Of a stretch of 27,459 nucleotides of DNA, positions 6,381-22,801 are shown piece after piece. Source of the DNA: an uncultured Candidatus Saccharibacteria bacterium (GTDB taxonomy: Bacteria; Patescibacteriota; Minisyncoccia; UBA6257; Colwellbacteraceae). Every line of letters begins with the position of its first letter. The stretch's first letter is position 1. The notes under the pieces were generated by a model. It saw only the letters and a program-made list of their open reading frames with translations, did not search any database and was not told the origin of the DNA. The DNA is taken from assembly GCA_964536655.1 (NCBI GenBank), contig CAZHYH010000001.1:1-27459 (forward strand), given 5' to 3'. A program made the translations under genes and the position numbers.

Positions 6381-6493
6381 AATAGAATCACCTCTATAAT
6401 CATCTAAAAACCTCGAAAAATCAAGAAATTTATGGTCTTTTTAACCCTGATGCCTATAGTAGAGGGGTATAAAAGGTCGATTTAGTATAAATT

Positions 6494-6883
6494 TTGCTCA
6501 ATAATATGGAAGAAGATAGTTATCAAGTCACTTTTGTTCCTAAAAGACTAAAGGTTGACGATAAGCCAGAATTCAACCATTTTCCCGTGAATATTCTTTT
6601 TGCCAGTATCAAGAAAAAAGATAATAAGCAAAAAGTTCGTTATTCTGTCTATCTGCCGGATCTTTCAACCTATACCGAAAATGATAAAAACCAAGGAATG
6701 GAGTACTACAATGTAATTGATAGAAATTATTGGCTCTGGATATCACGCAATAAAGAAAGTGGTTCTTATATAGGTTTTAAATATCGCGGTCCTCGTTGTA
6801 ATCCTGAAAGTCTCGGCTCTGCCACAGGGATAAATTACGAAGTATTCTTCAGATTTTTTACTGCTCTCGGGGTAAAGGAATAA
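6494..6883 (+). CDS. Hypothetical protein, 125-129 aa (only plus-strand gene)
   Basis: Open frame filling an otherwise empty gap and divergent from mnmA. The start is TTG 6494 or ATG 6506. No recognisable family. Confidence 0.6.
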   Translation: MLNNMEEDSYQVTFVPKRLKVDDKPEFNHFPVNILFASIKKKDNKQKVRYSVYLPDLSTYTENDKNQGMEYYNVIDRNYWLWISRNKESGSYIGFKYRGPRCNPESLGSATGINYEVFFRFFTALGVKE

Positions 6884-7063
6884 AAAAAACTGGGCAATAC
6901 TTTCATACTGCCGAGACTATATTTACACTTAAATTGTCCACTGATTATATATTTTTAAAGGTTCTAGAGGGTTTGAATGCTGGAGAATAAAATATATAAA
7001 AGCGCAAAGAAACTAAGTAGTGGTAAAAATTAAGGAGTTATTTAAGAGATCCAAATATGAGAA

Positions 7064-7276
7064 GTAGAAAATCTTTTCGTAGCCAACATGTTGGAATGAA
7101 GTTATAAATTACCGAGCAAGGAGGAAAGAAGTAGGAAAATGTCTCTGTCTGAATCCCAATATATTGACTTACGAAGTCAATATATTGGTTGAGTTCGATA
7201 TTTTCCGTTAACTTTTAACGACGAGCGAGAATAATTTATCTGAATGGAAATGGCTGGCGAGAAAAGGATTTTCTAC
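7064..7276. repeat. Degenerate long palindrome with a perfect 15-bp central stem (7156-7188)
   Basis: CCAATATATTGACTT-ACG-AAGTCAATATATTGG at the centre. Colinear inverted blocks GTAGAAAATC, TTTTC, AGCCA, ATAAATTA and GGAAAAT lie in arms of 107 and 103 nt. Confidence 0.7.
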
Positions 7277-7286
7277 GAATCCAACC

Positions 7287-7856
7287 TTACGCTTTTTCGA
7301 CTCGTTCAACATAAGTTCCCATTTCTGTATTAACTCTAATAACATCGCCCACGTTGATAAATAAAGGCGCGTTCACTTTGGCACCGGATTCGATAATAAC
7401 GGCTTTATTACCGCCAGAGGCCGTGTCGCCCTTAATGGCAGGCGGCGCTTCCACAACTTTGTACTCCGCTTTAATAGGAAGCTTGGTACCGACAATCTCA
7501 CCACTAAAAGTGAGGGCGGTTAAAATCATATTTGGTTTAAGGTATGAAATCTGTCCCGCTAGCCTTTCCTCCTCAACTTTAAATCTTTTAGATGGGTCGT
7601 TAGGATAAACAAACCAATATTCTCCCCTATGCCCATAGAGATACCTCAAATTTTTCTTCTCTATTTCCGCTTCTTTAATAGAGTCGTTCTGGTGGAAAGT
7701 ACGATCTTGAACAGCGCCAGTTATCATATTCCTTATTTTAGTTTTAGAAACTGGCTTCCTTTGTTGCATACGCAGAAATTCGTACTCCAAAATTTCCCAC
7801 GGACGACCCTCGAGAATTACAAACGTTCCCGGTTTCAGTTCATTGTAGGATAGCAT
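7287..7856 (-). CDS. efp: Translation elongation factor P
   Basis: ELKPGTFVILEG N-terminus, YLKPNM, and the conserved C-terminus GDTASGGNKAVIIESGAKVNAPLFINVGDVIRVNT..G.YVER. Confidence 0.95.
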   Translation of the reverse strand: MLSYNELKPGTFVILEGRPWEILEYEFLRMQQRKPVSKTKIRNMITGAVQDRTFHQNDSIKEAEIEKKNLRYLYGHRGEYWFVYPNDPSKRFKVEEERLAGQISYLKPNMILTALTFSGEIVGTKLPIKAEYKVVEAPPAIKGDTASGGNKAVIIESGAKVNAPLFINVGDVIRVNTEMGTYVERVEKA

Positions 7857-7857
7857 A

Positions 7858-8004
7858 CCAGGTAGTAGAAACTCGACTTGTTAAATTCTTTTTGTTTTTG
7901 ACCTTTGAAGTTGATAGGATTTTCATAAATTATTTACTTATTTTGAGCCTGAAGTGAAACTTATTTAAAATTTAACAAAAAGTAGTCGAGTTTTCACTAC
8001 CTGG
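7858..8004. mobile_element. MITE-like element, copy 1 (147 bp; 21-bp TIRs; 4-bp flanking direct repeat CATA = TATG on the coding strand)
   Basis: Left end CCAGGTAGTAGAAACTCGACT (7858-7878) and right end AGTCGAGTTTTCACTACCTGG (7984-8004) are 19/21 complementary. CATA occurs at 7854-7857 and 8005-8008. Confidence 0.85.
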
Positions 8005-8009
8005 CATAG

Positions 8010-9443
8010 CTAAGATTGATCTTCTTCTTTATGTTCTTTCTTAATTGATTTAGATAAAACTTCTCGCAGTTCTTCTAAATTTACCGGTTTCCTTTCTTTC
8101 TTCGCAACTTCAAGTATTTCAAGCGGCTGCTCCGCGCGACGCTCGGATTTCTCCACTATTTCTTTTTTGCCGCCTTGCCACTCTTCCTCTATTTTTTTAT
8201 TGACTGTTTCTTTGGGTGTGCCATACCGCCTGCGATTGTTTTCAACGATAGCGTCTAAGGGCGTATCTTTGATTATTTCCCTTGGCGGCAAAGTTTCTGC
8301 GGAGAACGGCCGCGAAGCAATGCCGTCAATCATTAATTTAATGTAAATACTATGCTGTGACAAATTTACCAAATCGTTCGAGTTAAATTCAGGTAAAAAT
8401 TCTTTTTCTACAAACTCAGCATCTTCGGCGCCTATCCTAAAAGTAGCCATAGTGCCGACATTGCCAAAAATAGCAAACTTAACTTTTTCATCAAGCTGCT
8501 CAATATATTGATGAGCTAAAGTAAGGCTTAGCCTGTATTTTCTTGCTTCCGATAAAATATTGGCGAAGGATTCCGTAGAGAAATTCTGAAATTCGTCTAT
8601 ATAAAGAAAGAAATCGCGGCGCTCTGCTTCGGGAAGATTAACGCGGCTCATAGCTGCCAATTGGATTTTGGTAATAAGCATTGCGCCTAAAAGGGCGGAA
8701 TTATCTTCTCCGATTTTTCCTTTAGAAAGATTAGCGATAAAAATTTTTCCCTCATCCATCATTCTTCTTATATCTATTGTTGAATGCGGCTGGCCGATAA
8801 TATTACGTATCAAGGGGTTGGCAACGAACTGACCGACTTTATTTAAAATGGCGGCTGTAGCCTCGGCTTCAAGCCTTTGAGTATAACGGGCAAATTCGTT
8901 AATCCAAAAACTCTTGATAACCGGATCAGCTAAACGCTCCACCACCTCACGCCGATAGTCTCTCTCGGTTAAAAGTCTCATTATACCCAGAAGCGTAGAA
9001 CCTGGGAACTCAAGAAGTGAAAGTAAAGAATTGTTTAAAATATATTCCATCCTAGCTGACCAAACATCCGGCCAAATTTTTTTGAATATTCCCATGAGAC
9101 CCGAAGCCACAATGTGATGATACTCGTCACCAACTTTCTCAAGCGGATTGAAACCTATGGGATAGTCAATATCAGCCGGGTTAAAGTAAATAACATCGTC
9201 AATCCTATTTTCTGGAATAAAATGAAGAATCTTTTCGGCAAAATCCCCATGCGGATCAACAAGTCCGATGCCGCGACCGGCTAAAATATCATCAATTACC
9301 ATATTTTCCATCATAGTTGTCTTACCGCTCCCAGTTTTACCGATAATATAAATATGGCGCCTACGATCGTCGGTCTTGATTCCGAATTTGGCTTGCCCAT
9401 TCCTAAAATTTGTTCGCCCTAATGGCGTAATTATTTCTTCCAT
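8010..9443 (-). CDS. VirD4/TraG/HerA-like P-loop ATPase (type IV secretion coupling-protein-like, DUF87-type)
   Basis: RRRHIYIIGKTGSGKT Walker A, LVDPHGD, FFLYIDEFQNF Walker B, SEARKYRLSLTLAHQY, IFGNVGT and FRIGAEDA. Confidence 0.9.
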   Translation of the reverse strand: MEEIITPLGRTNFRNGQAKFGIKTDDRRRHIYIIGKTGSGKTTMMENMVIDDILAGRGIGLVDPHGDFAEKILHFIPENRIDDVIYFNPADIDYPIGFNPLEKVGDEYHHIVASGLMGIFKKIWPDVWSARMEYILNNSLLSLLEFPGSTLLGIMRLLTERDYRREVVERLADPVIKSFWINEFARYTQRLEAEATAAILNKVGQFVANPLIRNIIGQPHSTIDIRRMMDEGKIFIANLSKGKIGEDNSALLGAMLITKIQLAAMSRVNLPEAERRDFFLYIDEFQNFSTESFANILSEARKYRLSLTLAHQYIEQLDEKVKFAIFGNVGTMATFRIGAEDAEFVEKEFLPEFNSNDLVNLSQHSIYIKLMIDGIASRPFSAETLPPREIIKDTPLDAIVENNRRRYGTPKETVNKKIEEEWQGGKKEIVEKSERRAEQPLEILEVAKKERKPVNLEELREVLSKSIKKEHKEEDQS

Positions 9444-9448
9444 AGGAT

Positions 9449-10747
9449 TTAATCAGTAACAATAGGTAAATTGGGAGGGGAGCTTCCTTTTTTAGCTTCT
9501 AAAGGTTTTAAGCTCGGCGCTCCTGCCGCGGCAATGGGCGGATGATACAAAGTTGCTAACTCTTCAATAGAAAACACAGAAGTCTTAAAACGCAAAACGA
9601 ACGGTATCTTTGGTTCCAGTGGCATTTCACGTTTCAGGTAGCTCTTAAATAATTTTTTCTTGCGCTTAAGAAGCCTGCGTTTGCGAAATATCTTACCAAC
9701 AACTCGCGGAACAGTAAGCGTGCTTGCATTCGGACGCAGAGAATTAAGATTCTGCGTACCGAATTGTCTCATTGCTCCCATGACTGCCGCTACGTTAGAA
9801 GCAGTAAAAGAGTCTTTCTTATCTAAGTATATGAATCTCAAAATCGCCTCAAAACCAAGCTTAGATATTTTATTTTCAATCGCTTTTAAAAACTCTTGCT
9901 CGCCGGGAGTAGGCATTTTTCTATCGGTTGGTTTTTCTTCGCCACCACCTTTGGACCAAGTAGGATACTGAACAGGCGCTAAAATAAGATTGCTTAAAAA
10001 TTGTATTAAGGCATCTCCTATTCCCTGTGGCGGCGCTTTAGGAGTTCTACCCATAACTTTATTAATTACTTCTTCGGCTTCACTTCGCCAAATATTGCCC
10101 GTTGGCCTAATAAGAAGTTGAAGCCAAATCATTTCATCAGATTTAAGACCTGACATTGCCTCAGAAATATTAGCAATCGGGTCCAACCTTCTCTCTTCAA
10201 TGTTTTCTTCAAAAAATTGGTAAGTTTTAATGGGATAATAGTTTTCTCTTGCGAGAATGAAATCCGTACCAAAAATATCGTAGGTATCATTAGGTAAATC
10301 ATCGCCAAATTTACCGGTATAATCCTCTGCTTCATGTATTTCAGTTTCGGGATATTGAGAAAAAAGCGAAGCCTCTACTAAATTCCGATATTTTTCAGGT
10401 ACATAAGCATAAAAATGTATGCCGTGAGCGAATCCTACCATCTCCAGAGACATCCATTCTTCCACCTTACCCACCCACCATCTATCGACCCATATTAATC
10501 CAAAGCTATAAGTGGCGTGGAGGCTCGCGAAAACCTGTTCCATAGCTTTCGGTGATTTCAGATTCTCTTTGGGTATTTTTATTTCAAGCATCACCCACTT
10601 GATGTTTTCAATAAACTTTTTCCGGACACGAATAAGCCACCAATATCTCCCTAAAATAATGAGAACATAGAGAGATATTAAAAAAACTATAAGTCCGGCC
10701 CAACCACTAAGGACTTCTCCAATCCTTGTCAAAATTGAGCTAACCAT
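9449..10747 (-). CDS. Hypothetical membrane-anchored protein, probable partner of the adjacent ATPase
   Basis: N-terminal TM helix, LEIKIPKE..KSPKAMEQVF, and C-terminal SIEELATLYHPP...PPNLP. It ends 5 nt upstream of the ATPase. The family resemblance is from recall of CPR gene pairs. Confidence 0.8.
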   Translation of the reverse strand: MVSSILTRIGEVLSGWAGLIVFLISLYVLIILGRYWWLIRVRKKFIENIKWVMLEIKIPKENLKSPKAMEQVFASLHATYSFGLIWVDRWWVGKVEEWMSLEMVGFAHGIHFYAYVPEKYRNLVEASLFSQYPETEIHEAEDYTGKFGDDLPNDTYDIFGTDFILARENYYPIKTYQFFEENIEERRLDPIANISEAMSGLKSDEMIWLQLLIRPTGNIWRSEAEEVINKVMGRTPKAPPQGIGDALIQFLSNLILAPVQYPTWSKGGGEEKPTDRKMPTPGEQEFLKAIENKISKLGFEAILRFIYLDKKDSFTASNVAAVMGAMRQFGTQNLNSLRPNASTLTVPRVVGKIFRKRRLLKRKKKLFKSYLKREMPLEPKIPFVLRFKTSVFSIEELATLYHPPIAAAGAPSLKPLEAKKGSSPPNLPIVTD

Positions 10748-11586
10748 TACTTTTTTAAGTGCTCTTTCAGGGCGTATGTTCCGCGACCAACTAAAACGAA
10801 ACGCGGATCCTTAATGAGCTCGTTGTGGATGGTGGCAGGGTGAGCCTGCTTTTTACCCAACCCATTAACCAATGAAGCGATTTCTTTAAAGTGCAAAGGC
10901 ACACCCTTCTTTTTTAAAACCAAAAAACTTTTATCTCTCACCGTTTTAGGGTGAATATGAATCCAATGTTTAGCGCCTAAGTCGCCGTAAGGACCGATGC
11001 CGAAATGTTTAGAGACCGAAAGATAATTAACCACCACAACTTCCGGCAAATCAAACTTAGCCATAGCCGCTTCAAGAAACTTATTGAAGTTATGTTCCTT
11101 AAACTTCAATAAATAACCGACCATAGAGGTGGCTGTTTTATATGATGTTTTATCGTTATGCCAGATATCGTGCCAATCATCGTCTTCGTCAATTACCTCC
11201 GGTTCACCCAATACTTTAGCTATAAGATATAATTCATTGCCAAAAATCTCTTCTTCATATTTGACGCCGAATAATATGCGTAAATCTCTTACTAGCAGAT
11301 CTTCGCGCCTCAAGTTGCCTATCTTATTTAAATAGTCATGGATTAACTCTAAAATAGCCTTAGTTTCTTCTCCATCAATAAACTTTTTTAAGGACTGAAG
11401 AGAATTATCCTCTATTTGCCTTACTCGTTCTCTTGTCAAATTATAGGCGCTGCCTAATAAGGCTAAGGTTTTAACCTCCTCTCCGTAAAGACCGTAACGA
11501 CTTATTAAAATTTTGGCCGACCTATCATCAAGTCGTCCGAAAGCTCGATCTATGACCTTGCGCAACTTCAGAGGTGTGCCTAACAT
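10747..11586 (-). CDS. Sigma-70 region-4-like HTH plus C-terminal HARE-type winged HTH protein
   Basis: N-terminal ILISRYGL...TLALLG..YNLTRERVRQIE (sigma region 4). C-terminal LVLKKKGVPLHFKEIA...TIHNELIKDPRFVLVGRGTYAL (winged HTH). No sigma region 2 is visible. Confidence 0.8.
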   Translation of the reverse strand: MLGTPLKLRKVIDRAFGRLDDRSAKILISRYGLYGEEVKTLALLGSAYNLTRERVRQIEDNSLQSLKKFIDGEETKAILELIHDYLNKIGNLRREDLLVRDLRILFGVKYEEEIFGNELYLIAKVLGEPEVIDEDDDWHDIWHNDKTSYKTATSMVGYLLKFKEHNFNKFLEAAMAKFDLPEVVVVNYLSVSKHFGIGPYGDLGAKHWIHIHPKTVRDKSFLVLKKKGVPLHFKEIASLVNGLGKKQAHPATIHNELIKDPRFVLVGRGTYALKEHLKK

Positions 11587-11592
11587 GCTATA

Positions 11593-11621
11593 AAACTACA
11601 ATTTTTTGATCTATAAGTCAA
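11593..11621 (-). promoter_or_regulatory. Putative sigma70 promoter TTGACT-N17-TAGTTT
   Basis: -35 at 11616-11621, 17-nt spacer, -10 at 11593-11598, then 6 nt to ATG 11586. Confidence 0.5.
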
Positions 11622-11623
11622 TC

Positions 11624-12529
11624 TTAAATCTTAGAATGGCGTGATAATCTATGAATCACAACAAGCAAAGGGCTCGCAACAAAAATAGAAGAGTATGTTC
11701 CGACAACAGTGCCAATTAAGATAGTAAGCACAAAATACTGCAAACCGACCGGTCCCCAGAAATAAAGAGCAAATAATACAAAAACTAAGGTCAGTGAGGT
11801 ATTAATTGACCTGGCAAAGGTTTCATTAACGCTTTTATTGACTATCTCGTCTAATTCCATGTTAGTATCACGGGCTCTCGTTAAATTTTCTCTTATCCTG
11901 TCAAAAACAACAATCGTATCGTGAACGGAAAAACCCATTACCATGAGTAGAGCCACAATAAAATTCGAATCTACGGCCACTCCTATAAAATTTCCTAAAA
12001 TTGCGAATACCCCGGCTGGAATTATTACATCATGAGCTAAAGTGATTAAGGTAATAATGCCGTATTTCCAAGAACTTACCGGGCGAGAAACTTTTCTAAA
12101 AACGAAAGCAATGTATAAAGAGATAACCACCATAACTAAAATAACGGCGGTTATGGATTTGCTCCTTAACTCTTTGGAAACCGAAGGGCTTATTCTCTGG
12201 AAATCAAAATCCTCAGCACCGCTGAAATTCTTCTCAATCGTGCCGAAATGAATTTGTCTGTCACTGTCGGGTATCTCAGGCAACGTAACTGCATATATAT
12301 CACTCGCTCTATCAAAAGCTATCCCTGAAACTTGAAGACCTAAGTTTGATCTAAAAAATTCTTCCAATTTTTGAGCGTCCGTACCAGGAATTTTAATTTG
12401 CCACAAAGTCCCACCCGTGAAATCCACTCCCAAACGAAATCCAAAAACAAGCATGCTTACAATACTAAGAACTATGAACGCGGTTGATATCCCAAAAAAT
12501 ACATTTTTATGTCCTATAACGTTAAACAT
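11624..12529 (-). CDS. secF: Protein translocase subunit SecF
   Basis: LGVDFTGGT, ISPSVSKEL, GFSVHDTIVVFDRIRE, TFARSINTS and GTYSSIFVASP. Confidence 0.95.
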   Translation of the reverse strand: MFNVIGHKNVFFGISTAFIVLSIVSMLVFGFRLGVDFTGGTLWQIKIPGTDAQKLEEFFRSNLGLQVSGIAFDRASDIYAVTLPEIPDSDRQIHFGTIEKNFSGAEDFDFQRISPSVSKELRSKSITAVILVMVVISLYIAFVFRKVSRPVSSWKYGIITLITLAHDVIIPAGVFAILGNFIGVAVDSNFIVALLMVMGFSVHDTIVVFDRIRENLTRARDTNMELDEIVNKSVNETFARSINTSLTLVFVLFALYFWGPVGLQYFVLTILIGTVVGTYSSIFVASPLLVVIHRLSRHSKI

Positions 12530-12530
12530 G

Positions 12531-13784
12531 TTATTTTCTAATAAAAACTTTAAGCATATTTCTCGTCACAAAGATTGCTGAAAACATACTAACGGCAACT
12601 CCTATGCCTAGCGTTAAAGCAAAACCTTGGACGAAACTGGAAGTAAAAAAATAAAGAATTGTGGCTGTAATGATCGTACTTATATTTGAGTCGCGGATAG
12701 GAAGCCACGCACGTTTAAAACCCTCCTCGATGGCTGCGGTTTTTATAAGTCCTTTTCTTAACTCCTCTTTGGTGCGTTCAAAAATAAGTATATTAGCATC
12801 TACCGCCATACCTACAGAAAGGATAAAACCCGCAATGCCCGACAATGTCATGGTAAAAGAAGGAATAAGCCAGAGTGCGCCGGATTTAAAAACGGCTAGT
12901 GTCAAAGCAGTATAAATAAGCAAGGCTAACACCGCAAAAATGCCAAGTAGTCTATAATAGGCAAGCATAAAAAGCATAACTATGCCTGTCCCTATTGCTC
13001 CGGCAACAATAATTTTATACAAAGCATCTTGAGCTGCGGTGGCGCTTACCGTTCTCTGATTAGTTAAAGAGATTGGGGCAGAAAGAGCGCCAGCATTTAG
13101 TCTCTGAATTAATTGTTTAGCCCCTTCTACTGTGAAACCTTCTCCTCCACCAGATATAGTTGCTTTACCGCCAGAGATTTTTTCATTCACCCGCGGCGCA
13201 TCCGTCAATTGATCATCAACAAATATTGCAAGCGGCTTCCCGACATTACGAGCCGTAATCTCTTCAAAAATCTTGGCGCCTTCTTCATTAAACTTTAAAC
13301 TCACGATTGGCTCATTTAAGTTACCGAACTCCAAAGAAGAGCCCGATATATATCTTCCGGTAAGAGGGGTTTTGGTAAAAATTATATTCTCTCCATCTTG
13401 GCTTACCTCTCTAAAATCGAGGCGCGGGGTTTCTCCTATCTGCCGAACCGCATCTTTCAAGTCTTTGACGCCGGCCAAATCTACTAAAAGTTCATAAGAG
13501 CCTCCCTTTTGGGCAATAGTAATTTTTGGTTCTGCTACGCCGTAAAGATTAACCCTTTTCTCGATAACCTCCCTCAAACCGGCCACTACCGCTTCGTATT
13601 CGCTTTGGTCTACTTCGCTTAGATCTATTTTATACGCTAAAGAAGTTCCTCCAACCAGATCTAATCCTAAACTCCAAGGCTTATATTTGGAGCCATACCA
13701 TTTAGGATAGATGAAAATGCCGGCGGCGCTCGATACCAGTAAAATAATGATTAAAATAATTAAATTGGCTTTGAAGCTTTTCAT
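12531..13784 (-). CDS. secD: Protein translocase subunit SecD (short periplasmic region)
   Basis: LGLDLVGG, AIFVDD, LNAGAL, GMAVDANILIFER, IRDSNISTII and VQGFALTLGIG. Confidence 0.95.
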   Translation of the reverse strand: MKSFKANLIILIIILLVSSAAGIFIYPKWYGSKYKPWSLGLDLVGGTSLAYKIDLSEVDQSEYEAVVAGLREVIEKRVNLYGVAEPKITIAQKGGSYELLVDLAGVKDLKDAVRQIGETPRLDFREVSQDGENIIFTKTPLTGRYISGSSLEFGNLNEPIVSLKFNEEGAKIFEEITARNVGKPLAIFVDDQLTDAPRVNEKISGGKATISGGGEGFTVEGAKQLIQRLNAGALSAPISLTNQRTVSATAAQDALYKIIVAGAIGTGIVMLFMLAYYRLLGIFAVLALLIYTALTLAVFKSGALWLIPSFTMTLSGIAGFILSVGMAVDANILIFERTKEELRKGLIKTAAIEEGFKRAWLPIRDSNISTIITATILYFFTSSFVQGFALTLGIGVAVSMFSAIFVTRNMLKVFIRK

Positions 13785-13791
13785 AAATATG

Positions 13792-13862
13792 TCCCCCCAC
13801 TAGGAATCGAACCTAGATCAATTGCTTAAAAGGCAACTGCTTTACCACTAAGCTATGGGGGG
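13792..13862 (-). tRNA. tRNA-Lys (anticodon TTT), CCA not encoded
   Basis: Cloverleaf: acceptor CCCCCCA/TGGGGGG, D arm GCTT-AGTGGTA-AAGC, anticodon arm GTTGC-CTTTTAA-GCAAT, T arm CTAGG-TTCGATT-CCTAG, discriminator A; 71 nt. Confidence 0.95.
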
Positions 13863-13885
13863 CAAGACCCCAAGCTTACGGAAGA

Positions 13886-14968
13886 TTACTCTTCTTTAAT
13901 CAGTTTTTCAAGTTCTTCGAGCAACTTCTTGGCTTTGGCGCCAATGTTTTTAGGAATTTTAATATCAAGTTTGACAACTAGATCGTTTTGTGGAGTCATC
14001 CCTTCACCTTTGATTCTTATTTCCTCATTTAAATTGTGTTGAGACGGAATCGTAATCTCTACTTTACCATCGCCTAAGGCGTGAACCTTAATTTTTCTGC
14101 CCAAAAGAACATCTATAATATCCGCCGCAACTGTAGTATAAAGATCATTGCCCTTTCTCTCAAATTTCGCGTGAGGTAAAATTCTAACCCGTACATAGAG
14201 ATCTCCGGATTCTGCCTGTCTTGCCCCCGCTTCACCAATGCCCTTTATTTTGATAATCTGGCCGTCATCTACGCCCGGTCTTATCTCAAGAACAGCATTT
14301 CTTGTGCCCGAGACGCGTCCTTCTCCCTTGCAGGCGGCACAAATCTTATTCGGTATCTGGCCGAAGCCGCTGCAATGTTTGCAAGCGACTACCTGGACAA
14401 AGTTACCGAAGAAAGTATTTCTTGATTCTCTTATTTCTCCTCTGCCGCCGCAATATTCGCACTTCTTAAGACCGGCTACATGGTCGTATCCTAATCCGCG
14501 GCAAACGTTACAAATAAGATGCGTTTGATATTCCAGGTTAACTCTTTTCCCTGATTTTGCTTCTTCTAAAGTAACCGTCACGCTTATTTCTAAATCCGAA
14601 CCACGCTTGTAAGTTTTACGCTTTGGTTTAACTCCCAGCCCTTCAAAAAAAGCATCGAATACTTCGCCCAAATCAGAGGTATCCCCGAAGCCGCCAAGGT
14701 TAATATCCCAGTTAAACCCTTCTGGGTTCACTCCGCTCCAGGCGCCGTAATTCGAGCCGTCGCTAAACACTTTGCCGAAACGATCGTACTCCGCCCGCTT
14801 TTTAGCATCAGAGAGCACTTGATAAGCTTCGTTTATTTCCTTAAATTTCTTCTCATCGCCGCCTTGCTTATCAGGATGATATTTATGCGCTAAACGCCTA
14901 TAAGCCTTCTTAATTTCTTCGGTAGAAGCGTTGCGGAGAACTTCTAAGATTTTGTAATAGTCATTCAT
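13886..14968 (-). CDS. dnaJ: Chaperone DnaJ
   Basis: J domain with HPD, G/F-rich linker, four CxxCxGxG repeats and C-terminal GDLYVRV. Confidence 0.97.
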
Positions 14969-14969
14969 T

Positions 14970-15105
14970 CCAGGTAGTAGAAACTCGACTAATTATATTG
15001 GTAATTTTGACCTTTAAGTTTTCCATTATTTATAGGTAAATTCATTTATAACTATTTGATTATTTTATTCGCCTTTGGCGAACGAGTCGAGTTTTCACTA
15101 CCTGG
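14970..15105. mobile_element. MITE-like element, copy 2 (136 bp; same 21-bp TIRs; 4-bp flanking direct repeat CATT = AATG on the coding strand)
   Basis: CCAGGTAGTAGAAACTCGACT (14970-14990) and AGTCGAGTTTTCACTACCTGG (15085-15105) are identical to the ends of copy 1. CATT occurs at 14966-14969 and 15106-15109. Confidence 0.85.
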
Positions 15106-15109
15106 CATT

Positions 15110-16072
15110 TTATTTTAATATAATTACCTCTCTGCTACGAGATTCAAGTTGAACCACGGCAAAATTAAACGCCAATAATATTTCATATACAATAAAAGCT
15201 AACAAAGCAATGGGCGCATGAATAAACGGAATAAAACTTCTAACCAGTGAATAAATTAATATTAAAGAAACGCTCCAGAGAAAAACTTTCGAAGAAGGCG
15301 TAAGATCGATGTATTTAAAACGTAAAGTATCATAGATGTTAGCAGATATCGGTTTCCCCAAATCTATCTTGCTGCCAATAATATCCTCCACTTTCTCCGT
15401 CAGCTGATCTACGGACTTAGTAATTAGCTGATTTTGCGCCCAGAGAGGCAGTTTATTTAAATCTTGTACCTCTTTATCGCCTAAGTTCGAAACTACAATA
15501 TTATTTAATAATTCGCGCATAGGCACGGAGGGAGAAAAAGTTGGGTAATATCTCATAACCAGCGGTGTAAGCGGTCTTAAAAGGATATTTACTCCCTCTT
15601 CGCTAAATAAGCCGCCTTTCATAACAAACATAACTATGATAAAAAGCACGAGAGCGGGCGCGACGAGATTTAAAGACAAACGCGAAACCCTGAAAAAGCG
15701 AATTTTCATAGTGGCTTCCAGTTCTTTACGGCTGTCAAAAGAAGCTTTAAATAAAAGAACTGTAAGAACGAAAACAGCTATAACAAAAAGCCCTGAAAAA
15801 TTTTGGTAAAAGGGTAAAGCGAAAGCTATTGATTCTAAAAGAATCGCAAAAAAAAGTTTATCAAAGCCCTTAATAAAAAGATTTTGCAGGATAAAAATAA
15901 CTAGAAATATAATTGTGAAAACGGCGCCATATATCAACTTGCCTTCCTCAAGAAAGTAACCGGCTAAACCCGCAAAGAGTACGGCAGCAAAAATGACAAT
16001 AGAAATTTTAAGAATAGACCTGTCTACATCAGCCACATCGGAAGCGCTCTGTAGAAGAGAATTATTGTCCAT
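15110..16072 (-). CDS. Hypothetical multi-pass membrane protein
   Basis: 320 aa with about five N-terminal and two C-terminal hydrophobic segments around a soluble domain. It overlaps the dnaK stop. Confidence 0.75.
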   Translation of the reverse strand: MDNNSLLQSASDVADVDRSILKISIVIFAAVLFAGLAGYFLEEGKLIYGAVFTIIFLVIFILQNLFIKGFDKLFFAILLESIAFALPFYQNFSGLFVIAVFVLTVLLFKASFDSRKELEATMKIRFFRVSRLSLNLVAPALVLFIIVMFVMKGGLFSEEGVNILLRPLTPLVMRYYPTFSPSVPMRELLNNIVVSNLGDKEVQDLNKLPLWAQNQLITKSVDQLTEKVEDIIGSKIDLGKPISANIYDTLRFKYIDLTPSSKVFLWSVSLILIYSLVRSFIPFIHAPIALLAFIVYEILLAFNFAVVQLESRSREVIILK

Positions 16073-22493: not shown

Positions 22494-22567
22494 GGTAGCC
22501 CCAAGGGGAATCGAACCCCTGTTCCCGCCTTGAGAAGGCGGTGTCCTAGCCGCTAGACGATGGGGCC
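22493..22567 (-). tRNA. tRNA-Glu (anticodon CTC) with encoded CCA
   Basis: GGCCCCA/TGGGGCT acceptor, anticodon arm CCGCC-TTCTCAA-GGCGG, T arm AGGGG-TTCGATT-CCCCT, and ACCA end; 75 nt. Confidence 0.95.
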
Positions 22568-22801
22568 TCTCCTACGCTCCGATTACCATCGGAGCTTCGG
22601 AAGAGCAAGTAGTGGTAATTAACAGTTTACTTGTCCTTCCGAAGCTCAAATGTTCATTTGAGCGAAGGAGGAGACGATGGGGCCTCTCCTACGCTCCGAT
22701 TACCATCGGAGCTTCGGAAGAGCAAGTAGTGGTAATTAACAGTTTACTTGTCCTTCCGAAGCTCAAATGTTCATTTGAGCGAAGGAGGAGACGATGGGGC
22801 C
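22555..22801. repeat. Tandem repeat: two identical 117-bp units plus a third 13-bp copy of the tRNA-Glu 5' end
   Basis: AGACGATGGGGCC occurs at 22555, 22672 and 22789. The identical 104-bp interiors (22568-22671 and 22685-22788) each contain three hairpins. Confidence 0.92.

Follow-up and report, generated by a model that had tools for sequence, protein, structure and literature searches.

We analysed a 27,459-nt stretch of DNA, hereafter the window, from an uncultured Candidatus Saccharibacteria bacterium (assembly GCA_964536655.1, contig CAZHYH010000001.1, positions 1 to 27,459), in which two copies of a short hairpin-forming element stand directly in front of efp and dnaJ. We think it likely that these copies belong to a family of mobile hairpin elements whose full copies encode a GIY-YIG nuclease, capture the start codons of host genes and move riders, that is, copies without an open reading frame (ORF). 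The family seems to be undescribed and very compact, and full-text literature searches, in which journal coverage was partial, did not return a description of such an element.

Two element copies in front of efp and dnaJ

The two copies and the genes next to them, all on the minus strand, are as follows.

7858..8004, minus strand: element copy 1, 147 nt, ORF-less, between the TrwB-like ATPase gene and efp
8004-7984, minus strand: copy 1 5' arm (coding strand, 'GA' arm, CCAGGTAGTGAAAACTCGACT)
7878-7858, minus strand: copy 1 3' arm (reverse complement of the 'AG' arm)
8005..8008, minus strand: copy 1 upstream duplication TATG, containing the ATG 8007-8005
8007-7972, minus strand: copy 1 vestigial ORF, MPGSENSTTFC followed by a stop, 11 codons, mostly encoded by the 5' arm
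7854..7857, minus strand: copy 1 downstream duplication TATG, whose ATG 7856-7854 is the efp start codon
7287..7856, minus strand: efp, 189 aa, host gene with targeted start codon, frame intact
8010..9443, minus strand: TrwB/TraG-like ATPase gene, upstream of copy 1, stop TAG 8012-8010, 1 nt before TATG
14970..15105, minus strand: element copy 2, 136 nt, ORF-less, between the 320-aa membrane protein gene and dnaJ
15105-15085 and 14990-14970, minus strand: copy 2 5' and 3' arms
15106..15109, minus strand: copy 2 upstream duplication AATG, containing the ATG 15108-15106
15108-15052, minus strand: copy 2 vestigial ORF, MPGSENSTRSPKANKIIK followed by a stop, 18 codons
14966..14969, minus strand: copy 2 downstream duplication AATG, whose ATG 14968-14966 is the dnaJ start codon
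13886..14968, minus strand: dnaJ, 360 aa, host gene with targeted start codon, frame intact
15110..16072, minus strand: gene of a 320-aa membrane protein without a Pfam match, upstream of copy 2, stop TAA 15112-15110 abutting AATG

On the plus strand, CCAGGTAGTAGAAACTCGACT occurs at 7858-7878 and 14970-14990, and its partner arm, CCAGGTAGTGAAAACTCGACT, occurs on the minus strand at 7984-8004 and 15085-15105. The inverted ends of each copy are 21 nt long and show two mismatches, which are identical in both copies. When up to 3 mismatches were allowed, the arms matched the window at these four places only, and 100 dinucleotide-preserving shuffles of its sequence yielded no match at this threshold. 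The genes around both copies all lie on the minus strand, and the copies are oriented alike relative to them. Upstream of the elements, the stop codon and the duplication read TAG-C-TATG at copy 1 and TAA-AATG at copy 2. The interiors (105 and 94 nt, 22-25% G+C) have a single 11-mer in common, AAAGGTCAAAA.

These data agree with the initial annotation of the window, which had described, with correct coordinates and sequences, two elements with identical 21-nt ends and the same two mismatches, flanked by 4-bp repeats (TATG and AATG) whose downstream copy gives efp and dnaJ their ATG. The common orientation of the two copies and their AT-rich, largely unalike interiors had also been seen correctly. 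As to the junctions that remain once the element and one repeat are taken out, the TAG-CT-ATG given for efp was right, and the one given for dnaJ was off by one base, as it reads TAA-A-ATG and not TAA-AA-ATG.

The RNA copies of the two elements were predicted to fold into hairpins of -49.4 and -43.9 kcal/mol (z-scores -7.3 and -7.5). An Rfam scan of the window returned two tRNAs only, with no match at either element. Promoter and terminator scans of both copies gave scores no higher than those of shuffled sequence, and a TTGACC motif shared by the copies on the plus strand was considered as a promoter and found unsupported in this comparison. From their sequence, we infer that the window copies are ORF-less members of the family, similar to MITEs (miniature inverted-repeat transposable elements), which would need the nuclease to be supplied in trans.

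The efp and dnaJ elements are insertions

Relatives with an EF-P 84-88% identical to that of the window showed a conserved gene order, namely a sigma-like gene, DUF8128, the TrwB-like ATPase gene and efp and, farther upstream, dnaK, the membrane protein gene, dnaJ, secD and secF. In these relatives, both sites were free of the element. The ATPase-efp junction was 0-8 nt long (...cttaATG, ...tttatcaATG, ...ttcaataATG), and the junction between the membrane protein gene and dnaJ was 2 nt long (TAAgtATG, TAAcaATG). Elsewhere in the family, tandem copies were found in two stretches (L032 and L063, the latter with three), as well as a nested copy with an AAAA duplication (L107). Collectively, the empty sites and the tandem and nested copies confirmed that the efp and dnaJ elements are insertions and not an ancient structure.

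Both elements were present in all assemblies of the window's species, which came from several samples; this genome recurs in samples from an aquifer. As would be expected of a repeat, several contigs broke inside the efp copy (L044-L046, L051 and L052). A 40-nt shorter efp element in GCA_002772315.1 (L050) was considered as a polymorphism and rejected, the difference being a run of N in the scaffold.

The window copies show several traits of MITEs: they are short and noncoding, have terminal inverted repeats and a duplication that varies, occur in multiple copies and have empty orthologous sites. The initial annotation had proposed that the element is mobile but non-autonomous, duplicates its target and can insert in operons without breaking genes, and had suggested a look at relatives for empty alleles upstream of efp and dnaJ. 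This proposal was supported: empty alleles were found at both sites, matching flanks recurred among the 136 copies described below, the frames of both host genes are intact and the empty junctions in relatives are tight.

The element family is widespread in CPR bacteria

Family copies were retrieved with a near-exact pattern of the arms, and paired and unpaired ends were counted in 153 fetched stretches (~190 ends); where copies come from related genomes, they are only partly independent of one another. The pattern matched 33 stretches of DNA in 17 species-representative metagenome-assembled genomes (MAGs). These were labelled Saccharibacteria, Parcubacteria, Gottesman-, Lipton-, Portnoy- and Paceibacteria, plus two bins labelled Gammaproteobacteria and Spirochaetia. 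With a slightly looser pattern, at least 120 stretches were found in metagenomes. Multiple copies were seen per MAG or contig. The search of related genomes with both ends, as suggested by the initial annotation, thus showed that this hairpin-forming element family is widespread in the candidate phyla radiation (CPR, or Patescibacteria).

Contigs of the two outlying bins resemble CPR DNA (L002 of CAYHFH01; L015, L022, L023 and L026 of QYPD01). The flank and element of L002 are the same as in a Patescibacteria contig (L014), and the EF-P labelled Spirochaetia is 61% identical to that of the window. Probably, these bins are mislabelled or the contigs mis-binned. A scan of viral contigs with the arm pattern gave 4 lone matches without a partner arm, which we treated as chance; the two that were inspected (L034 and L035) were located in non-element sequence.

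Pairing of ends gave 143 elements, with one GA and one AG arm in 140 of them. Among the matches listed, the sizes of these 143 pairs clustered at 64-74, 111-156, 207 and 311-363 nt, and the ~190 ends in 153 stretches included no paired copy above 363 nt and no transposase bounded by arms. Kilobase-sized copies, or a transposase between distant arms, were likewise not found there. The unpaired arms corresponded to contig edges, to partners that had indels or had diverged, to truncations and to arms split by a second small palindrome.

The arms form a conserved mismatched hairpin

The ends of the element are inverted arms of 20-21 bp with the consensus CCAGGTAGT(GA/AG)AAAYTCGAC. Across 131 distinct arm pairs, they form a stem of 20 bp with a tandem mismatch in it, position 10 being G.T in 128 and position 11 A.C in 129 of the 131 pairs. 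Two other positions covary with almost no mismatches, namely position 15 (T-A in 87 pairs, C-G in 41) and position 20 (C-G in 100, T-A in 24). The strict pairing of opposite arms is not a search artefact, because the pattern permitted all four purine pairs. The identical mismatched hairpin is formed by either DNA strand or by an RNA copy of either. Around P0285, a member of the nuclease family described below, the arms differ along with the protein (CCAGGAAGT/ACTTCCTGG).

In some stretches (L059, positions 2080-2164; L074; L137), the 3' arm is split at the mismatch, between ...TTTTC and ACTACCTGG, by a GC-rich palindrome, CCTGCCTGCCGGCAGGCAGG, which was found also elsewhere in L137. This palindrome may be a separate repeat, akin to REP (repetitive extragenic palindromic) elements, that targets the mismatch. 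In L172, the 3' arm is split at the mismatch by another insert, of 42 nt.

Full copies encode a GIY-YIG nuclease that is probably read from a borrowed ATG

All copies of 311-363 nt contained one ORF of ~87-91 aa on the strand of the GA arm. Its only Pfam match was to the GIY-YIG catalytic domain PF01541 (E ~1e-18). A sequence search of solved structures placed UPF0213 (1zg2, 1ywl) and SLX1 closest. A structure predicted from 36 homologues, with a predicted local distance difference test (pLDDT) score of 82, was that of a bare GIY-YIG domain, and its best fold matches were the SLX1 nuclease domain and UPF0213 BH0048. The catalytic Y, Y-x-G, R, H-N and E were invariant in the 36 homologues. Homology searches yielded about 870-900 protein clusters of 86-104 aa, of which the few named ones were Patescibacteria/CPR proteins annotated as 'putative endonuclease' or 'GIY-YIG nuclease family protein'.

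Most of the called proteins start with MPGSENST, less often with MPGSRNST. This prefix is the translation of an ATG and the GA (or AG) arm, and is followed by ~2 codons and then by a conserved MFYYVY. Proteins called without the prefix were still preceded by an in-frame TATG and the arm. In 4 of the 43 proteins read (P0181, P0192, P0215 and P0240), the internal Met is replaced by Ile or Val, so they can start only from the borrowed ATG. Among 17 unique full copies, 14 were preceded by an ATG, in 13 cases in frame (p = 3e-4 against an expectation of 1/3). The ORF begins 3-6 nt past the 5' arm. At its other end, the stop codon and the first bases of the 3' arm overlap, and the host ATG follows 20-21 nt after the stop in 10 of 12 copies. 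Two coding copies were found in operon junctions, namely Metallophos / nuclease / AMMECR1 and DNA_alkylation / nuclease / 102-aa gene.

The initial annotation had suspected a DDE transposase of IS1380 type behind the element, and had suggested a look for long copies with a transposase or a passenger gene. Among the matches listed, no copy exceeded 363 nt, and the long copies, of 311-363 nt, carried the ~90-aa GIY-YIG nuclease ORF and no transposase, which goes against such a parentage. We also considered ORF-less copies as simple internal deletions of coding copies; this was rejected because only 13 of 122 ORF-less interiors resembled the nuclease ORF, with weak matches.

Incidentally, one coding copy (L114, positions 1233-1595; P0184) contains a 31-nt mini element, CCGGGTAGTGAAAC-AAA-GTTCTACTACCCGG, with a CAAAG repeat. 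It lies in frame inside the nuclease ORF, to which it adds 12 residues. The 14-nt arms of this mini version suggest that the outer 14 bp, including the mismatch, may be sufficient for mobility.

Insertion favours NATG sequences and start codons

A matching 4-bp flanking repeat was found in 100 of 136 non-redundant copies. It was NATG/CATN in 84 cases, ATGN/NCAT in none and another 4-mer (e.g. TATA, TAAA, CACA, TGTG) in 16. Among the NATG repeats, TATG/CATA predominates; the base before the ATG was T at 84% of sites, A came second, and G and C were also present. NATG occurs in one register although ATGN would equally preserve the start codon. The count of 84 NATG versus 0 ATGN, together with the 16 other 4-mers, therefore points to an enzyme preference in a fixed register and not to an absolute requirement. 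A possibility was that the right-hand NATG is a part of the element, as in IS200/IS605-like elements. This was rejected, as unusual 4-mers match on both sides (AATG, GATG, TATA, CACA, TGTG, TCAA and others).

Unequal flanking 4-mers, CATG upstream and TATG downstream, were noticed in L009, L076, L088, L102, L173, L090, L161 and L165. CATG on both flanks was seen in one pair only, and the CATG to TATG asymmetry is not explained by a simple 4-bp duplication.

Insertion sites were classified after removal of the elements in silico, with a crude ORF caller that accepted only ATG starts and ORFs of 70 aa or more. The 130 sites comprised 91 at the first ATG of a called ORF, 8 at an intergenic ATG, 10 'genic' sites, several of which are probably true starts, and 21 without an ATG. 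First-ATG sites thus made up 91 of the 99 non-genic ATG sites (92%), as compared with an expected 23% if all ATG are taken as background (p = 1e-48) and 36% if TATG only (p = 8e-32). Many targeted starts had no Shine-Dalgarno motif, and 6-9 nt upstream of several there was a TATACT/TATAAT box; these features suggest that many targets are leaderless genes. Other targets, including both in the window, were tight operon junctions.

With respect to the strand of the gene, the GA arm was the upstream one in 83 copies and the downstream one in 24 (p = 9e-9). When ORF-less copies were taken alone, the numbers were 73 and 23.

The initial annotation had read a WATG and start-codon preference from the two window copies, and had suggested that flanking 4-mers be tabulated against start codons. 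The counts above (84/100 and 91/99) bear out the preference for start codons and NATG. The restriction to W does not stand, the first base being mostly T, then A, and at times G or C. An orientation fixed relative to the gene was likewise too strong, since 83 versus 24 is a bias and not a rule.

A proposed cycle for the element

Insertion, target duplication, start-codon and orientation biases, the nuclease ORF and its frame relation, and the arm structure are directly supported by the observations above. On sequence grounds, we propose the nuclease as the probable mover of the element. A fuller proposal, to which we give an even chance, is that the family is a new class of autonomous mobile element of ~310 bp. 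Its sole protein would be a ~90-aa SLX1/UPF0213-like GIY-YIG nuclease that recognises the element's mismatched hairpin, and the element itself would lack a promoter, a ribosome-binding site and a start codon. Insertion at NATG would let the host start codon initiate the nuclease, the duplicated ATG would restart the host gene, and the window copies would be riders.

In such a cycle, insertion on the start codon of a gene would duplicate 4 bp, most often TATG, and the upstream duplicated ATG and the 5' arm (MPGSENST) would be read in frame into the nuclease. The nuclease ORF, which lacks visible initiation signals of its own, would be translated from the captured start codon. The downstream duplicated ATG would restore the host gene, to which ribosomes stopping at the arm-embedded stop may gain access by reinitiation at the host ATG 20-21 nt on, or by crossing the foot of the hairpin. 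Phage T4 gene 38 has a split ribosome-binding site. In a comparable manner, the hairpin of ORF-less copies may bring the original upstream signals beside the second ATG.

As regards movement, the nuclease would recognise the hairpin or cruciform with its mismatch, in the way that branched DNA is recognised by SLX1 and hairpins in single-stranded DNA by Ssn enzymes (PMC11893778). The nuclease might then cut for excision or copying and make a 4-nt staggered cut at the NATG target, and host repair and ligation would finish the event. The same nuclease would move both full copies and ORF-less riders.

Several points weigh against this proposal. A hydrolytic GIY-YIG nuclease alone cannot join DNA, such that host ligation or repair is required, and a 4-bp duplication is a classic signature of DDE transposases. 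The window itself contains no nuclease-coding copy of the element. Among the 17 full copies, 4 do not share the frame of the upstream ATG and 3 do not lie at an ATG, and the 21 of 130 sites without an ATG make the start codon a preference and not an absolute rule. The background for start-codon enrichment comes from a crude ORF caller, and selection could partly account for the enrichment. Conservation of the arms is partly explained by the near-exact search pattern. Last, most ORF-less interiors are unlike the nuclease ORF (the 13 of 122 that resemble it do so weakly), which leaves the ends, the target and the duplication that both have in common as the basis for connecting riders with coding copies.

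Alternative explanations

Some of these points would be expected if the elements were classical MITEs moved in trans by a DDE transposase located elsewhere, of the IS1380-like kind suggested at the outset, with the GIY-YIG ORF as cargo or as a homing-type gene settled in the loop. Terminal inverted repeats with a fixed-length 4-bp duplication of varied sequence, ends that begin with CC, ORF-less interiors mostly unrelated to the nuclease ORF, and the fact that GIY-YIG enzymes are not known to join DNA all fit with this explanation. However, the ~190 ends in 153 stretches revealed no copy above 363 nt and no arm-bounded transposase among the matches listed. Moreover, the nuclease ORF occupies the interior at constant spacing in members of a protein family whose diverged clusters number in the hundreds, with the arms varying along, and a tandem mismatch in 98% of arm pairs is unexpected for two duplex sites of one transposase. 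We therefore hold a DDE transposase acting in trans to be rather unlikely.

It is also conceivable, if distinctly improbable in our opinion, that an Ssn-like nuclease and its recognition repeat are kept for a host role, such as the cutting of incoming single-stranded DNA in transformation, and that the repeats were spread by recombination or by another route. Ssn proteins are single-domain GIY-YIG nucleases of ~94 aa with hairpin repeats flanking the gene and scattered elsewhere, and they cut single-stranded DNA beside the repeat (PMC11893778). Also in line with this view, a gene for a ComEC-type competence protein (PF03772) is present in the genome region of the window. Yet exact and varied 4-bp duplications, empty orthologous sites and tandem and nested copies indicate transposition-like insertion, placement at start codons with an in-frame ORF resembles a parasite's route to expression, and the best sequence and fold matches of the nuclease are UPF0213 and SLX1.

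That the hairpins are fixed cis-regulatory RNA structures of the efp and dnaJ leaders, and not mobile DNA, is barely credible, for although the predicted hairpins are very stable, pair part of the start codon region and have arms that covary, the orthologous sites are empty in close relatives, the same ends stand before >100 unrelated genes in many lineages and in both orientations, with site-specific duplications and nested copies, and neither element has an Rfam match.

Comparison with known systems

A mobile hairpin element moved by its own GIY-YIG nuclease, the reading that we favour, has likenesses to several known systems. Among described systems, Ssn/NTS comes closest. Chenal et al. (Nat Commun 2025, PMC11893778) studied Ssn nucleases (CDD cd10448) with NTS/SRM hairpin repeats, in which the nuclease recognises the sequence and structure of the hairpin in single-stranded DNA, and remarked on the insertion-sequence-like layout. 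As in the present family, a single-domain GIY-YIG nuclease (~90-94 aa) has its gene bracketed by repeats that are also present as gene-less copies. In contrast, Ssn genes have a separate 28-nt hairpin on each flank, whereas here the two arms pair into one hairpin with the gene in the loop. Duplications of 4 bp, empty sites, nesting, start-codon targeting, translation from a captured ATG and mobility are unreported for Ssn. The hosts also differ, those here being CPR bacteria, and the nearest structures here are UPF0213 and SLX1, with Ssn compared by its published description.

Bacterial MITEs such as Correia of Neisseria, RUP and ERIC are likewise short, noncoding, multi-copy elements with inverted ends and a target duplication, which form intergenic, co-transcribed hairpins. 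Classical MITEs are linked, or presumed to be linked, to a DDE transposase, and use TA or short targets irrespective of start codons. In the present family, the coding relatives encode nothing but a GIY-YIG nuclease, 84% of the 4-bp duplications are NATG in one register, and the stem has a tandem mismatch in 98% of cases. With IS1380, the family shares ends that start with CC and a duplication of 4-5 bp, traits that are common to many unrelated elements and not diagnostic. IS1380 elements are ~1.7 kb long with a DDE transposase, whereas none bounded by arms was found here among the matches listed.

IS200/IS605 and palindrome-associated transposable elements (PATEs) resemble the family in their very small size, central hairpin DNA, tetranucleotide target preference and preferred orientation. 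They differ by an HUH tyrosine transposase, subterminal hairpins and the lack of a target duplication; unlike them, the present elements have terminal repeats, matching flanks of varied sequence and a GIY-YIG ORF. Finally, free-standing GIY-YIG homing endonuclease genes, such as I-TevI-like genes and the seg genes of T4-type phages (PMC2988022), are also selfish nuclease genes that lie between host genes and rely on host transcription. Homing genes, however, have an added DNA-binding domain and neither inverted ends nor a duplication, and move by recombination into the cognate empty allele only. Here, the catalytic domain is alone and the element is found at many unrelated loci.

Other features of the window

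Between efp and mnmA, the window contains ~0.9 kb (6381-7286) that is absent in relatives, where efp overlaps mnmA. It includes a 129-aa ORF on the opposite strand (6494-6883) and a hairpin with a perfect 13-bp stem (7156-7188), and it looks like another insertion of unknown kind. The 129-aa ORF was considered as a candidate transposase and set aside, as it had no Pfam match. Upstream of efp, a conserved three-gene block (8010-11586) encodes a sigma-70 region 4/HARE-HTH protein, DUF8128 and the TrwB/TraG-like coupling ATPase, an unusual neighbourhood for efp in this lineage.

Two perfect tandem units of 117 nt lie immediately upstream of tRNA-Glu (22555-22801). Each unit consists of the first 13 nt of tRNA-Glu, GGCCCCATCGTCT, which thereby occurs three times, and of 104 nt with inverted repeats CTCCTTCGCTC...GAGCGTAGGAG. 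The units may represent two insertions of a distinct small element at the 5' end of the tRNA-Glu gene.

Implications

The enzyme families known to power DNA transposition are few, namely the DDE, HUH, serine recombinase, tyrosine recombinase and Cas1 families. If the nuclease indeed moves the element, GIY-YIG would join them. The element would also lower the minimum size of an autonomous mobile element, ~310 bp being, to our knowledge, among the smallest sizes of such elements.

In practical terms, the hairpins break assemblies, the arms give rise to spurious "MPGSENS..." protein calls, and the elements place a stable hairpin and a short upstream ORF before essential genes. The nuclease and its hairpin could serve as a compact DNA tool specific for both sequence and structure, as was proposed for Ssn (PMC11893778).

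If the proposed cycle is true, the family would follow a new parasitic strategy, in which the element lands exactly on a start codon, regenerates it and leaves transcription and translation initiation to the host. Such a strategy would account for the spread of a selfish element in the genomes of CPR bacteria, which are tiny and densely packed with genes, while genes like efp and dnaJ are not killed.

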